DNA from: a virus | IMG/VR virus record: IMGVR_UViG_3300045988_122046 | Length of the DNA: 64,000 nt | Reading direction: 5' to 3' (one strand) | Made by a program: the position numbers and the translations under genes | In this document: positions 14,094 through 21,418 of the stretch, in pieces | Position numbering within the stretch: the stretch's first letter is position 1 | Layout: each line of letters opens with the position of its first letter | The notes under the pieces: model-generated | Seen by the model: the letters and a program-made list of their open reading frames with translations, nothing else | The model's database searches: none | What the model was told of the DNA's origin: nothing

Positions 14094-14996
14094 ATGGATA
14101 CTTCTGATTTAGCAAAAAGAATGAAAGACTATGAAATGAGAAACAGATACTTTTTACAAAAAAGGATTCCTGTTGCTATAAGGGTAGATATGAGAGCTGG
14201 GCACACTTTCACAAAAGGGTTTGAGAGACCCTTTGACAAAGTTTTTATGAAAAGTATGCAAGAAACTGCTAAATATATGTGTGAAAATATGGGAAATGCA
14301 AAATTTGCATACGTTCAGTCAGATGAGATTACTATTATATTAGTAGATTATGATACATTAGAGACTGATTGTTGGTTTAATTATAGAACTGATAAACTTT
14401 GTAGTATTTCTGCTTCAATGGCAACTATGGCTTTTAACAGATTCTTCGCTCAAGAAGTGGATAAATGGGGCGTTGAAACTTTTGGCTGGGAATGGTATAA
14501 AGGTGGTACTAATGATCCAGAAGTAGCAAATTCACCAGAATATAAATTATCTGAAATTTATTCTAAAGCAATTGATAAAGGTGCAATGTTTGATGCAAGG
14601 TGCTTTAACATTCCAAAAGAAGAGGTAACAAATCTCATTTATTGGCGACAGCTTGATGCAACCAGAAATAGTATTCAAATGGTTGGACAAGCTCATTTTT
14701 CACATAATGAACTTCAAGATAAAACTTGTAATATGATTCAAGATATGTTAATGACCAAATATGGCATTAATTGGAATGATTTTACAATACCGTGTAAACG
14801 AGGTACCGCATGTATTAAAGTCGCAACAAAGGTAACTGAAAATATCAAAAGAGAACCACAACCTTTTGGAGAAGATAGAGTTACAACTACAATCATTGAA
14901 GAGAGACCTATTTGGGCTATTGACAAAAATATGCCTATTTTAAAAGGTGAAGACCGCAAATATGTTGATGATTTAATTTATATAGGAGAAGAATAA
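14094..14996 (+). CDS. Thg1-like protein (tRNA-His guanylyltransferase family, 3'-5' nucleotidyltransferase)
   Basis: RVDMRAGHTFTKGFERPFD and YVQSDEITII match Thg1 motifs (RIDGRxFHxF..., QSDE). Confidence 0.55.
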   Translation: MDTSDLAKRMKDYEMRNRYFLQKRIPVAIRVDMRAGHTFTKGFERPFDKVFMKSMQETAKYMCENMGNAKFAYVQSDEITIILVDYDTLETDCWFNYRTDKLCSISASMATMAFNRFFAQEVDKWGVETFGWEWYKGGTNDPEVANSPEYKLSEIYSKAIDKGAMFDARCFNIPKEEVTNLIYWRQLDATRNSIQMVGQAHFSHNELQDKTCNMIQDMLMTKYGINWNDFTIPCKRGTACIKVATKVTENIKREPQPFGEDRVTTTIIEERPIWAIDKNMPILKGEDRKYVDDLIYIGEE

Positions 14997-15305
14997 ATGA
15001 TAAGAGGATATAGCATTTCTGAGGAAGATATTGATAGAGTGATGCCTTTTGTGAGAGGTGTGATTCATGAACTTGAAGTCGGCAATGCTACAAATATTGA
15101 ACTCAGCCTTTTAAATCTTGGTCCATGTCAGTTTATGGATATTTTTGATAAACTCGGTTATGATAGAGATGATGACTGGGATACTAATGGCTGGGAACAG
15201 GATACCTGGTATTATTTTTCTAAAAAAGGTTCTAAGAAACTTTCCATGTATTATTGTGGATATACAGGAGAAATTTCTTTAGGCATTTGTGAGGAGGAGC
15301 ACTAA
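14997..15305 (+). CDS. hypothetical acidic protein
   Basis: ORF abutting neighbours. Confidence 0.45.
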   Translation: MIRGYSISEEDIDRVMPFVRGVIHELEVGNATNIELSLLNLGPCQFMDIFDKLGYDRDDDWDTNGWEQDTWYYFSKKGSKKLSMYYCGYTGEISLGICEEEH

Positions 15306-15733
15306 TGGGTTATAATTATGATATTACAAAAATGAATAAATTATTCAGTTTGGCAGCTCAATATTATCCTAAGAAAAAATTAGCTCATGCTTTGCGGGTT
15401 GCTGAATATGCGACCGCAAAAGCTGACCTTTTAAAAATGGATATAACAAAAGCTTATATGATTGCTTTGGCGCACGATTTGTTAGAAGATACTGAATGTC
15501 CAAAAGAAGACTTAATGTCTATTCTGGGAATAGAGAGTTATAATTCATTAGTTCTTTTAACAAAAGATTCTCAAGAAAAATATGAAGATTATATTCATAA
15601 AATTCTTGATGCAAAAGATGATTATGCTTTCATCGTTAAACAGGCAGACATGAAAGACCATATGACTTTAACTGATACGCTTACTGAAAAATTGCGGGAT
15701 AAATATATTCCTGTATTACATTATTTCTTATAA
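15305..15733 (+). CDS. HD-domain phosphohydrolase (YfbR/DatZ-like size)
   Basis: H..RVAEYA ... IALAHDLLEDT HD motif. Confidence 0.55.
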   Translation: MGYNYDITKMNKLFSLAAQYYPKKKLAHALRVAEYATAKADLLKMDITKAYMIALAHDLLEDTECPKEDLMSILGIESYNSLVLLTKDSQEKYEDYIHKILDAKDDYAFIVKQADMKDHMTLTDTLTEKLRDKYIPVLHYFL

Positions 15734-15747
15734 GAAAGGATTCATGT

Positions 15748-16104
15748 ATGAATTTTAACTGGAAAGAGAAAATGTTTTTAATTATTCTTTTATGTGTATT
15801 ATTTACATCTTTAGGTATGTCTTTTCGACATAAACCTGCGGAAAAGATGCAAATTTTTCCATCTTATGATTGGGGAAGCGAAGAAGAAGAAGTCTTAGCT
15901 TATATTTCTGCAAATACAAATGGAACTGATAAAGATAAACAACAAGCTATTATTGATTGTTTAGATTATGTATGGAACGCAAACCATAATTTTGACATTC
16001 CTGAGTATGCTTCTGCGAAATATAAATTTTATGTTGAACCAACCCAGCATGATTATGAACTTGTAAGATTGGTTAAAAAGGGACAATGGGCAACCGATGA
16101 TTAA
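15748..16104 (+). CDS. small secreted/membrane-anchored protein
   Basis: N-terminal hydrophobic segment MFLIILLCVLFTSLGMS. Confidence 0.45.
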   Translation: MNFNWKEKMFLIILLCVLFTSLGMSFRHKPAEKMQIFPSYDWGSEEEEVLAYISANTNGTDKDKQQAIIDCLDYVWNANHNFDIPEYASAKYKFYVEPTQHDYELVRLVKKGQWATDD

Positions 16105-16136
16105 GGGAGAAAGTTTAAATACTTTCTCCCTTTTTT
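16105..16136 (+). terminator. rho-independent terminator fused to next promoter
   Basis: gggagaaagt-ttaaat-actttctccc + TTTTTT which runs into -35 TTGATT. Confidence 0.6.
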
Positions 16137-19612: not shown

Positions 19613-19615
19613 AAT

Positions 19616-20191
19616 ATGAAAATTAAAAACTTTTTTGGACATTTAAAAACAGTATGTAAACATAAATATTGGGTAGGAAAATACTGCTTTAAAATTGGTC
19701 TTTATAAGCAGGGAATTACACATGATTTATCTAAATTTTCTCCTGTTGAATTTTGGGAAGGTGTCAAATATTGGCAGGGGACTCGTTCTCCAATAGATGC
19801 TTGTAAAGAGGAAAATGGGATGTCCTTTGCTTGGCAGCATCATAAAGGTCGGAATCGACATCACTACGAGTACTGGTTCGATAACCTTGATAAAGGTGGC
19901 ACCGCACTACCAATGCCAGACAAGTATCTTTTGGAATTACTTTGTGATTATTTAGGTGCGGGACGTGCTTATATGGGAAAAAATTTTACATATGAAGGAG
20001 AATATAAGTGGTGGCAGAATAAAATTAAAAATCCTATCGCCATGCATCCTGCTACTAAAGCTTTTATAGATAAAGTATTATCTCGTTTAGCGTGGAGAGA
20101 GCGACATAATATTGGATATAAGGCACTTTTAAATAAGAAAAATCTCATTAAGATTTATCACGAATGTTTGAAAGAAACAGACCTTAATTGA
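19616..20191 (+). CDS. hypothetical His-rich protein
   Basis: ORF with RBS ggaataaaat. Confidence 0.45.
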   Translation: MKIKNFFGHLKTVCKHKYWVGKYCFKIGLYKQGITHDLSKFSPVEFWEGVKYWQGTRSPIDACKEENGMSFAWQHHKGRNRHHYEYWFDNLDKGGTALPMPDKYLLELLCDYLGAGRAYMGKNFTYEGEYKWWQNKIKNPIAMHPATKAFIDKVLSRLAWRERHNIGYKALLNKKNLIKIYHECLKETDLN

Positions 20192-20216
20192 TTTACTTTT
20201 AAAATTTTTATATAAT
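20188..20216 (+). promoter_or_regulatory. conserved phage promoter
   Basis: TTGATT 20188-20193, TATAAT 20211-20216. Confidence 0.5.
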
Positions 20217-20239
20217 GTATTTACAATAAATAAAGGAGA

Positions 20240-21418
20240 TTGATAGGTATGCTGAATGAAAAGAAAGAAAGAGAGCTTGCTTATGTTGTCAAAGTTGACG
20301 AGATTCGTCCTATTGAAGGAGCTGATAGAGTAGAAGTAGCTATCGTAAATGGTTGGCATATTATGGTTCGTAAAGACCAGTTTAAGCCAGGTGATTTAGC
20401 TGTTTACTTTGAGATTGATTCTAAAGTTCCAGCAGAAGAGCCATTTATGTTTCTTGAGCCGAAGCATTTTAAAATTAAGACTCAGAAATATTTTAAAGGT
20501 ACTGTAATTTCTCAGGGTCTGCTGATGGGCTTTGAGGACTTCGGTTGGGAGAAAGACGCTTATAAACTTGGCGACTTTTTAACCCAGAAGTTAAAGGTAA
20601 CTTACGCAGTTGAAGAAGATAATGCTCGTAAAGCATCTTCTGTAGATAAGTACAAAAAGATGGCTCAGAGACATGGAAAATTATTCTCTCATCAGCCGTT
20701 TAGATGGTTAATGCGTAGAACTTGGGGTAAGAAAATCTTATTCCTGTTCTTTGGTAAAACCTCTGATAAGAAGACCGGATGGCCGGCATGGGTAGCAAAA
20801 ACTGACGAAGAGAGGGTTGAAAATATGCCATGGATATTTGATAATAAGTCTCCTTTCGTAGCTACTGAAAAAATTGATGGAACTTCCACTACTTTTACTA
20901 TGAAAAGAGGTAAGTTTGGAAAGAATGATTTCTATGTATGTTCTCGTAATGTAGTATTTGATAAGCCTGATAAGAATTGTTTCTATGATACAAATGTTTA
21001 TATCGAAATGGCTGAGAAGTATGATATTGAAAAAATTCTTGAGTCTATTCTTACCGATGATCCTACTCTAGATTGGGTAACTTTGCAAGGAGAGACTTAT
21101 GGAGCTGGTATTCAGAAGAGAGATTATGGACTTAAAGAGCATCGTTTTGCTGGTTTTAATTTCATTACTTCTAAAGAAGGTAGATGGGATTCTGTTCGTG
21201 CAGCTAAATTCATGACTCAGTATAATATTCCTTGGGTTCCTATCCTTGATGAAAACTATATTCTTCCTGGTACAATTGAGGAGCTGAGAGCATTTTCTCA
21301 TAATGAGGGTTCTCGTATCGATGGAGTTATTAAGGAAGGTATTGTATTTAGAAGTCAAGATGGTTCTATGTCTTTTAAGTGTGTAGATCCTGAGTTTTTA
21401 ATGAAGTATCATGCATAA
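20240..21418 (+). CDS. ATP-dependent RNA ligase, DraRnl/Rnl5-like (N-terminal OB-like domain plus C-terminal nucleotidyltransferase)
   Basis: Motif I VATEKIDGTS (KxDG), motif IV-like EGIVFRSQDG, lysine-containing motif V; ~200-aa N-terminal extension as in Rnl5 family. Confidence 0.55.
   Translation: MIGMLNEKKERELAYVVKVDEIRPIEGADRVEVAIVNGWHIMVRKDQFKPGDLAVYFEIDSKVPAEEPFMFLEPKHFKIKTQKYFKGTVISQGLLMGFEDFGWEKDAYKLGDFLTQKLKVTYAVEEDNARKASSVDKYKKMAQRHGKLFSHQPFRWLMRRTWGKKILFLFFGKTSDKKTGWPAWVAKTDEERVENMPWIFDNKSPFVATEKIDGTSTTFTMKRGKFGKNDFYVCSRNVVFDKPDKNCFYDTNVYIEMAEKYDIEKILESILTDDPTLDWVTLQGETYGAGIQKRDYGLKEHRFAGFNFITSKEGRWDSVRAAKFMTQYNIPWVPILDENYILPGTIEELRAFSHNEGSRIDGVIKEGIVFRSQDGSMSFKCVDPEFLMKYHA

Follow-up and report, generated by a model that had tools for sequence, protein, structure and literature searches.

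An Rnl5-type RNA ligase and its neighbours form a candidate RNA end-repair island in an uncultivated phage

Locus and gene content

The virus record IMGVR_UViG_3300045988_122046 of IMG/VR was analysed over a stretch of 64,000 nucleotides (hereafter the window), which carries an island of genes for RNA-end processing, among them an Rnl5-type RNA ligase, a 5'-OH polynucleotide-kinase-like protein and three metallophosphoesterases (MPEs). The window is AT-rich (~32% G+C), has almost all of its genes on the + strand and is laid out as six tRNA genes (82-8241), the island (8.5-35 kb) and a replication module (35-64 kb) with topoisomerase II, NAD-dependent DNA ligase, helicase, primase, RecJ, DNA polymerase and RNase H. 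Six open reading frames (ORFs) of the island had been named in an initial annotation (Thg1-like protein, HD protein, Pol-beta nucleotidyltransferase (NTase), calcineurin-like phosphoesterase, DEDDh exonuclease and RNA ligase); all of them lie on the + strand where they had been placed, match the families proposed in profile searches and have intact catalytic motifs. That gene list holds for every gene it names, but it had omitted a cREC protein, a DUF5662 protein, the third MPE and two homing-endonuclease-like genes on either flank of the cluster. The enzymes considered here are:

14094..14996, +, Thg1-like protein (bacterial TLP type), 3'-5' nucleotidyltransferase (PF04446, 4.5e-27)
15305..15733, +, small alarmone hydrolase-like HD protein (PF01966, 1e-4; phrog_990, 1.6e-16)
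16196..17017, +, divergent RlaP-family Pol-beta NTase (PF18765, 2.6e-4, under the Pfam cut-off; phrog_388, 2e-18)
17014..17802, +, metallophosphoesterase 1 (MPE1), calcineurin-like (PF00149, 1.1e-7)
18079..18897, +, DEDDh 3'-5' exonuclease, extended by ~100 aa at the C-terminus (PF00929, RNase_T, 6.9e-17)
18897..19226, +, cREC (cyclic-phosphate-processing receiver) domain protein (PF20274, 6.4e-13, 49.6 bits, cut-off 27)
19616..20191, +, DUF5662 protein (AlphaFold model in the HD fold)
20240..21418, +, Rnl5-type (DraRnl/NgrRnl-like) ATP-dependent RNA ligase (two-domain profile and structure-relative matches)
24880..25635, +, third metallophosphoesterase, lambda-phosphatase/PrpA type (NCBIfam PRK11439, 5.6e-10)
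29864..30382, +, P-loop 5'-OH polynucleotide-kinase-like protein, 172 aa (AAA_33, 1.4e-16)
30379..30930, +, metallophosphoesterase 2 (MPE2), YfcE/Aq_1665-like, 183 aa (PF12850, Metallophos_2, 9e-8; 1XM7, 9.6e-8)

The Rnl5-type RNA ligase

The ligase ORF probably has its real start at the ATG at 20249. Two domains were matched, the PHA02142 OB domain (residues 13-96, 7.4e-22) and then RNA_ligase (residues 205-390, 6.9e-20), which is the reversed architecture, OB then NTase, seen in Rnl5. The best solved relative is Naegleria NgrRnl (5COT, 4.4e-22), with an alignment that spans both domains and pairs K211 in KIDGTS with the KLDGSS motif of NgrRnl. Together with the motif residues K211 (KIDG), E285 (QGE), E366 (EGIVF) and K380, which are invariant in the clade, these matches uphold the Rnl5 type first proposed for this ORF. 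A match to TIGR02306 (RNA_lig_DRB0094; 1.4e-26, 93 bits) falls under the equivalog cut-off of 151, and tblastn gave no match between the window ligase and DraRnl, which are too diverged, though both match TIGR02306. A basic insert of ~45 residues (DKYKKMAQR...W...; residues ~121-180, window 20600-20780) lies between the OB and NTase domains; it is not present in NgrRnl, is nearly invariant across the phage clade and may be an RNA-binding element.

Rnl5 ligases are Mn-dependent and seal 3'-OH/5'-PO4 nicks in duplexes where the 3'-OH strand is RNA (PMC4408790, PMC5397189), and their physiological roles have been called uncharted (PMC5397189). They are annotated in 332 cultured phage records, with an identity to the window ligase of at most 31%. 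Two of these contexts were inspected (Microbacterium phage A3Wally and Pseudomonas phage VCM), and neither has a kinase or MPE alongside the ligase; in A3Wally the ligase is found directly 3' of a 30-tRNA array. No cultured phage with the same cluster was found among the contexts inspected, and Fusobacterium phage Fnu1 has Thg1 without the ligase.

Kinase and metallophosphoesterases

The kinase ORF can be extended to a TTG at 29798. Its P-loop (residues 33-40, GPAGSGKT) and SRD Asp both align with the kinase domain of Clostridium thermocellum Pnkp (4GP7), its best, albeit weak, match in PDB (3e-4). Among the NCBIfam models PSTK (9.5e-10) and bacter_Pnkp (5.3e-6) were matched, the latter over the kinase region only (24.9 bits, compared to a cut-off of 750). 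The start of MPE2 overlaps the kinase stop codon. These two genes had initially been described as a split bacterial-Pnkp-like pair, a description that fits the kinase and fails for MPE2, which is of the YfcE/Aq_1665 type and not a lambda-phosphatase. Bacterial Pnkp joins kinase, lambda-phosphatase and adenylyltransferase in a single polypeptide, while kinase and MPE2 are separate ORFs in the window.

All three MPEs carry the complete DxH / GD / GNH(D/E) / GHxH set: D7xH9, GD, GNHD and GHTH in MPE2; D10xH12, GD36, GNHE (67-70) and GHFH (210-213) in MPE1; and DLHG, GDCVDRG and GNHE among the motifs of the third. This third enzyme also matches the phosphatase region of bacter_Pnkp (2.3e-6) and is a possible member of the island.

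End-rebuilding and accessory enzymes

The Thg1-like protein scored 95 bits against PF04446 (cut-off 29) and matched phrog_4717 (4.8e-76). Among solved structures it is closest to BtTLP of Bacillus thuringiensis (4KGK, 9e-50), with human, yeast and Candida Thg1 at 5e-4 to 1e-3, and the catalytic carboxylate triad expected of a true member of the family is kept (D32 in RVD, D77 and E78 in SDE). BtTLP was reported to perform templated repair of 5'-truncated tRNA in vitro (PMC3061083).

For the HD protein, first described as an HD phosphohydrolase, Pfam alone does not go beyond the generic HD family; a profile built from six orthologs narrows this to the RelA/SpoT-type hydrolase superfamily. Searched against PDB, this profile matched the (p)ppApp hydrolase Aph1 (7SMG, 1.2e-9), Rel (1VJ7, 1.6e-6), Mesh1 (3NQW, 5.9e-5) and SpoT, and the residues H28, H57-D58, E61-D62 and D115, which make up the RSH motif H...HDxxED...D, are invariant. 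Because of these matches and residues it was assigned as small-alarmone-hydrolase-like. The alarmone hydrolases MESH1 and ATfaRel have been shown to strip the toxSAS pyrophosphate from the tRNA CCA end (10.1101/2021.04.30.441581).

The family proposed for the Pol-beta NTase was confirmed, its GS/DxD motif is present (invariant G37-S38, D49-x-D51, D86), and its orthologs allow a closer assignment. The window protein itself stays below the cut-off of the RlaP family PF10127 (14.9 bits, E 0.022, cut-off 23), and neither the single sequence nor a profile found a significant match in PDB. We nevertheless consider it a divergent RlaP, since 13 of 15 NTase orthologs from related loci match PF10127 (best 7.6e-12). 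RlaP (naming as cited in PMC12776372) adds 1-2 nucleoside monophosphates onto damaged RNA 3' ends (PMC12776372).

The DEDDh exonuclease has the motifs D6xE8 and H155-x4-D160, and is located directly 5' of the ligase in two related loci (L091 and L096). In the cREC protein the acidic residues D7-D8 and D49/D51 are present, and its neighbours are repair enzymes, with no histidine kinase partner. Both cREC and calcineurin-like phosphoesterases have been linked to phage RNA ligases (PMC7824862, PMC9503650); the catalytic activity of cREC is so far a prediction (PMC9503650). Based on its AlphaFold model, the DUF5662 protein is probably a metal-dependent phosphohydrolase of the HD superfamily.

Conservation of the ligase-kinase-phosphoesterase core

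No DNA-level similarity to cultured phages was found, and the phage is known from metagenomes alone. The nearest contig is the 188-kb IMG/VR record IMGVR_UViG_3300045988_122061 (97.5% identity), and remoter relatives come from metagenomes of rumen, rabbit gut, chicken gut and human gut. Binned relatives fall in Lachnospiraceae, Clostridia or Bacilli metagenome-assembled genomes (MAGs), which therefore indicates a Firmicutes host; altogether this points to a large uncultivated gut or rumen phage. For comparison, 80 IMG/VR loci and 32 phage-like MAG-bin loci encoding a close relative of the ligase were searched with all window proteins. The counts below rest on 111 phage-type ligase loci representing 89 ligase lineages (90% identity), and refer to proximity within 10 kb on either side of the ligase, not to whole genomes.

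MPE2 was present near the ligase in 67 and the kinase in 66 of the 89 lineages, followed by MPE1 (29), PIN-PhoH (28), RlaP-like NTase (26), lambda-type MPE (19), Ro60-like (18), Thg1-like (17), DUF5662 (10), HD (9), cREC (8) and exonuclease (4). In the 80 loci that have ligase, kinase and MPE2 together, the last two are adjacent in 74, and in 72 the kinase is found 3' of the ligase, separated from it by a median of 627 bp. As kinase and MPE2 are usually located just 3' of the ligase across lineages, we regard the three genes as the conserved core; the distant kinase/phosphoesterase pair of the window, which had been grouped with the repair genes of the Thg1-to-ligase cluster from the outset, thus does belong with the ligase. 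MPE1 is present in 39 loci, and in 23 of them it ends at most 1.5 kb 5' of the ligase.

The presence of Thg1-like, RlaP, HD, cREC, exonuclease and Ro60-like genes varies, and these accessories recur in shuffled orders. One relative (L091) has Ro60-like, Thg1, HD, NTase, MPE1, exonuclease and ligase genes in the order of the window, at 42-59% identity, and genes for ligase, Thg1, macro and MPE proteins occur together in L159, a distant element with 28% ligase identity. Because the same families recur beside the ligase in 89 distinct lineages from other contigs, the clustering goes beyond chance. The families matched, the intact catalytic motifs and the recurrence of the genes near one another, all directly observed, agree with the coherent RNA-end-processing toolkit that had been proposed for this gene set.

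Promoter-like motifs and transcription units

A promoter-like motif, TTGATT-N17-TATAAT, with a conserved A/T-rich spacer, occurs in 15 exact copies, all on the + strand (0.12 expected), and in 27 copies when one mismatch is allowed (3.9 expected). The positions are:

183, 3578, 4555, 5235, 7116, 8255, 16135, 17815, 20188, 24624, 27715, 33327, 37673, 49689 and 59035, +, exact motif copies
16135..16163, and also 8255, 11644, 17815, 20188, 24624, 27715, 29484 and 29576, +, motif copies before island units

The units preceded by a copy are those of the Ro60-like, PARG, RlaP-like, exonuclease, ligase, lambda-type MPE and kinase genes. Terminator-like hairpins were identified directly 5' of several copies (16103-16132, 17780-17818, 24599-24625 and 27693-27716). 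The motif is probably a phage early or middle promoter class, and its sharing indicates a shared expression class rather than a dedicated regulon.

tRNA genes, mobile elements and other neighbours

The remaining features of the region are listed below:

82-153, 1478-1554, 6621-6703, 7225-7297, 7617-7690 and 8167-8241, six phage tRNA genes
8498..10021, +, Ro60-like protein with a TROVE-like ring and a vWA domain (fold match to phage and bacterial Ro60)
10034-11494, glycine-rich-repeat protein (C-terminal half), 486 aa, between the Ro60-like and PARG genes, no family match
11706..12515, +, microbial PARG / macro-domain protein (PF10021, 1e-28)
13194..14090, +, homing-endonuclease-like gene 1 (Cys-rich zinc-ribbon-like repeats and a PD-(D/E)XK/Vsr-like C-terminus)
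14997..15305, +, small protein, 102 aa (phrog_14479, 2.7e-10; close relatives only)
15748..16104, +, small protein with a hydrophobic N-terminus, 118 aa, no family match, lineage-specific
17878..18060, +, zinc-ribbon-like protein, 60 aa (CxxC...CxxC pattern; weak HVO_0758 match)
19226..19612, +, protein of 128 aa, transmembrane-like helix at the N-terminus, no family match, lineage-specific
21625..22350, +, homing-endonuclease-like gene 2, a paralog of 13194-14090, adjoining the ligase
44536-46476, NAD-dependent DNA ligase of the replication module

The tRNA genes end ~6 kb 5' of the Thg1-to-ligase cluster. The 3' CCA is encoded in none of the six, and all of them therefore depend on post-transcriptional CCA addition. 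The initial annotation had offered maturation of unusual tRNA halves as one purpose of the island, a suggestion not borne out by a search of the window with ARAGORN and Rfam, which returned six intact tRNAs and no partial matches. Among related loci, 14 of 54 have a tRNA array within 10 kb of the ligase. Addition of G-1 to a phage tRNA-His was considered as a reason for the presence of Thg1 and is weakened as an explanation, as the tRNA-His of a relative (L051) encodes G-1 (and C73). An HNH/zinc-ribbon protein (737-1465) is encoded amid the tRNA genes.

The Ro60-like gene lies directly 3' of the tRNA array, and one relative (L014) has the identical order. Its product has the helical-repeat ring and vWA domain of the family, a match provided by fold comparison alone, as a sequence search against PDB gave nothing. 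No Rfam Y RNA or YrlA match was found near the gene at the gathering threshold or at E<=1, and the ~200-nt leader 5' of it folds no better than shuffled sequences (z = -0.78). The 486-aa glycine-rich protein is kept in close relatives only. The PARG/macro protein is 39% identical (1e-26) to DR_B0099 of Deinococcus radiodurans and is, like the Ro60-like protein, a peripheral member of the island.

The two homing-endonuclease-like genes are mobile insertions outside the repair chemistry. The segment 13004-14567 is either unmatched in L011 or matched there at just 68% identity, between flanks that are 97.5% identical. The gene at 21625-22350 is absent from L002 and L005, where the neighbouring ligase is 85% identical and the flanks 97%. 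Thus the 5' half of thg1 (68%) and the ligase (85%) are sharply diverged beside the homing genes, as in co-conversion tracts. In 16 of the 89 lineages, a member of this family was found no further than 3 kb from the ligase. In addition, GIY-YIG/NUMOD homing endonuclease genes crowd the replication module (39611-40354, 47168-48160, 50179-50847 and 63057-63842), and the phage genome is heavily colonised by mobile endonucleases.

A conserved small partner 3' of thg1 was sought and rejected: the ORFs of 102, 118, 128, 60 and 101 aa are lineage-specific, and the ORFs located 3' of thg1 in Fusobacterium phage Fnu1 and in L159 are not related to them. Between ligase and kinase, a YqeY/GatB-like protein is encoded at 23436-23897 (PF09424, 2.5e-24), a family that an unrelated phage contig (L083) also has near a kinase and a DUF5662 gene. 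Further 3' are a vWA-type protein (26766-27686), a 103-aa ORF and a very divergent adenylosuccinate-synthetase-like protein (28078-29256); a Ruminococcus MAG contig (L157, 5269-7138) likewise has a vWA and adenylosuccinate-synthetase-like pair, just 5' of the gene for a distant Rnl5 ligase. PurZ of the 2-aminoadenine pathway was rejected as an identity for 28078-29256, which has a weak match to PurA (~5e-5) and matched no PurZ structure. Just 3' of the kinase/MPE2 pair are a Band-7/flotillin protein (31245-32777) and a PIN-PhoH protein (34135-35382), and a prohibitin-family gene is found near thg1 in phage Fnu1.

Proposed function and alternative explanations

We favour, with moderate confidence, the interpretation that the island is a phage set for healing and sealing RNA ends, most likely those of tRNA, that serves as counter-defence. 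Its substrates and its counter-defence role are deduced throughout from family membership and gene context, and such a role is plausible and fits the published literature on phage RNA repair. Cleavage of tRNA, or of other RNA, by host ribotoxins would yield 5'-OH ends together with ends that carry a 2',3'-cyclic phosphate or a 3'-phosphate. MPE2, MPE1, cREC and possibly DUF5662 would open the cyclic phosphate and take off the 3' phosphate to leave a 3'-OH, the kinase would turn the 5'-OH into a 5'-phosphate, and the Rnl5 ligase would then seal the 3'-OH/5'-PO4 nick. The Thg1-like protein could use the paired strand as a template to fill in 5'-truncated strands, the RlaP-like NTase could add 1-2 nucleotides onto 3'-OH ends, and the DEDDh exonuclease could trim 3' ends. 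The alarmone-hydrolase-like HD protein may remove the toxSAS 3'-pyrophosphate at the CCA end, while the Ro60-like protein, putatively acting in RNA quality control, and the PARG/macro protein flank the repair set.

Several observations weigh against this interpretation. The Rnl5 ligases characterised so far seal duplex nicks and not single-stranded anticodon-loop breaks, and the sole physiological phenotype known for the family is that of D. radiodurans, namely radiation sensitivity with a delay in reassembly of the genome (PMC5397189). The set of accessories differs greatly from lineage to lineage, with the exonuclease in four only, and the counts of co-occurrence measure proximity. The lineage of the window is unusual in that 8.4 kb of unrelated genes separate ligase and kinase, and the island is broken up by homing-endonuclease-like genes. 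Finally, the cluster consists of several short transcription units, not one operon, and the promoter type that these share also precedes replication genes.

A different target, namely both ends of the tRNA acceptor stem instead of the anticodon loop, is conceivable, though we find it doubtful. Nick sealing by Rnl5 and templated polymerisation by the Thg1-like protein would both require a duplex, and the RlaP-like NTase, the DEDDh exonuclease and the HD protein would all work on 3' ends. The attacks reversed would then be toxSAS/CapRel pyrophosphorylation, MenT-type nucleotidylation and cleavage by acceptor-stem nucleases. If true, this would represent an as yet undemonstrated class of phage counter-defence, and the first physiological role for Rnl5 ligases and bacterial-type Thg1-like proteins.

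Apart from these two possible targets, both of which assign the genes to tRNA repair, the module might repair DNA or RNA-DNA hybrids, in which case Rnl5 would seal nicks with a ribonucleotide on the 3'-OH side. Primer remnants, embedded ribonucleotides or damaged replication intermediates would supply the nicks, and the kinase, phosphoesterases and DEDDh exonuclease would clean their ends, as has been proposed for the rnl/DR_B0095 and LigB-PARG-Pnk operons of D. radiodurans. We judge this unlikely, and still a serious alternative, because the same gene set is tied to post-irradiation genome recovery in D. radiodurans: loss of DraRnl leads to radiation sensitivity and slower genome reassembly, and its gene is co-operonic with a DEDDh-like gene and near PARG and a 5'-OH kinase (PMC5397189). 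The similarity of the window PARG to DR_B0099, weak matches of the kinase to DR_B0098 and of MPE1 to the ligase-associated PdeM model (0.018), and the position of the island next to the replication module are in line with it. However, the Thg1-like, RlaP, cREC, Ro60-like and alarmone-hydrolase families act on RNA or nucleotide substrates where studied, tRNA arrays recur beside the module, and the phage already has an NAD-dependent DNA ligase and RNase H. Very unlikely, in our view, is a role in maturation of the phage's own tRNAs, in which the exonuclease would trim the 3' trailer, the NTase would add 3' nucleotides and the Thg1-like protein would perform G-1 addition or 5' editing. The lack of encoded CCA in the six tRNA genes, the location of the island just 3' of the tRNA array and the reputation of the Thg1 family for G-1 addition to tRNA-His all suit such a role, yet ordinary maturation needs no kinase, three phosphoesterases, cREC or ligase. 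Moreover, the NTase is RlaP-like and not a CCA-adding enzyme, ARAGORN and Rfam detected no split, intron-containing or half tRNAs in the window, the tRNA-His of L051 has G at -1 and C73 encoded in the genome, and most module loci are without a tRNA gene within 10 kb.

It is also quite unlikely that the genes form no functional unit at all and represent a hypervariable accessory region, in which nucleic-acid enzymes were gathered independently and shuffled by homing endonucleases. Such an origin would agree with the multiple promoters and terminators in the island, with homing-endonuclease-like insertions and their co-conversion tracts, and with the varying accessory content and the ligase-kinase gap of the window lineage. 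On the other hand, the linkage of ligase, kinase and MPE2 is kept in 66-67 of the 89 lineages at 45-65% protein identity, the kinase stop overlaps the MPE2 start, and the accessory families recur in differing orders, even in the distant element with 28% ligase identity.

Should the preferred interpretation, i.e. healing and sealing of RNA ends as counter-defence, be correct, phage RNA repair would extend past the T4 Pnkp/Rnl1 model to widespread uncultivated gut and rumen phages. It also raises the possibility that phages reverse chemical modification of tRNA 3' ends besides cleavage. The recurrent set of Rnl5 ligase, kinase and phosphoesterase, together with Thg1-like, RlaP-like and alarmone-hydrolase-like genes, provides a genetic setting for questions on the role of Rnl5 and of bacterial Thg1-like proteins.

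Comparison with known systems

A close parallel is the tRNA healing-and-sealing pathway of T4, Pnkp with Rnl1, which counters the anticodon nuclease PrrC. In both cases a phage encodes a 5'-kinase, a 3'-phosphoesterase and an ATP-dependent RNA ligase, which would probably act sequentially on cyclic-phosphate/5'-OH breaks. Unlike in T4, the window ligase is an Rnl5 (N-terminal OB, nick-sealing) and not an Rnl1, and the kinase and phosphatase are separate proteins, of which the phosphatase is a binuclear metallophosphoesterase instead of a DxDxT/HAD enzyme. T4 has no counterpart of the Thg1-like, RlaP-like, exonuclease and alarmone-hydrolase-like HD proteins. With bacterial Pnkp/Hen1 the island shares a kinase that resembles the Pnkp kinase domain, a metallophosphoesterase for 3' healing and the heal-then-seal logic; it differs in having no fused Pnkp or Pnkp ligase domain and in the subfamily of the adjacent phosphoesterase, and no Hen1 methyltransferase was found in the window.

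Deinococcus radiodurans MP1 carries rnl (DR_B0094)-DR_B0095 and LigB-PARG-Pnk (DR_B0100-0098), which resemble the island in combining Rnl5, a DEDDh-like exonuclease, PARG and a 5'-OH kinase (PMC5397189). These loci are cellular, radiation-induced and tied to genome reassembly, and are without Thg1-like, RlaP, cREC and MPE2 genes.

Neighbourhoods for RNA repair in phages have been described as comprising a ligase, a nucleotide kinase, a calcineurin-like phosphoesterase and cREC, with sporadic RlaP, Thg1 and Ro/TROVE (Iyer et al. 2021 PMC7824862; 2022 PMC9503650), and the cREC and MPE2 of the window have homologs in the one described for E. coli phage nieznany. The described neighbourhoods centre on RtcB, Rnl1/T4-like or Rnl2 ligases, often with sirtuin/KptA or MazG, whereas that of the window centres on Rnl5, a name with no occurrence in the jumbo-phage neighbourhood paper; sirtuin, KptA, 2H and MazG were absent among the window ORFs scanned. 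The clade of the window also differs from the described phage neighbourhoods in consisting of uncultivated gut/rumen Firmicutes phages. The island is thus an unusual variant of a known phage strategy, not a new kind of system. What appears to be new is the Rnl5-centred core kept across many uncultivated Firmicutes phages, for which an earlier description of an Rnl5 neighbourhood is possible, its recurrence alongside Thg1-like and alarmone-hydrolase-like genes, and the model-based assignment of DUF5662 to the HD fold.

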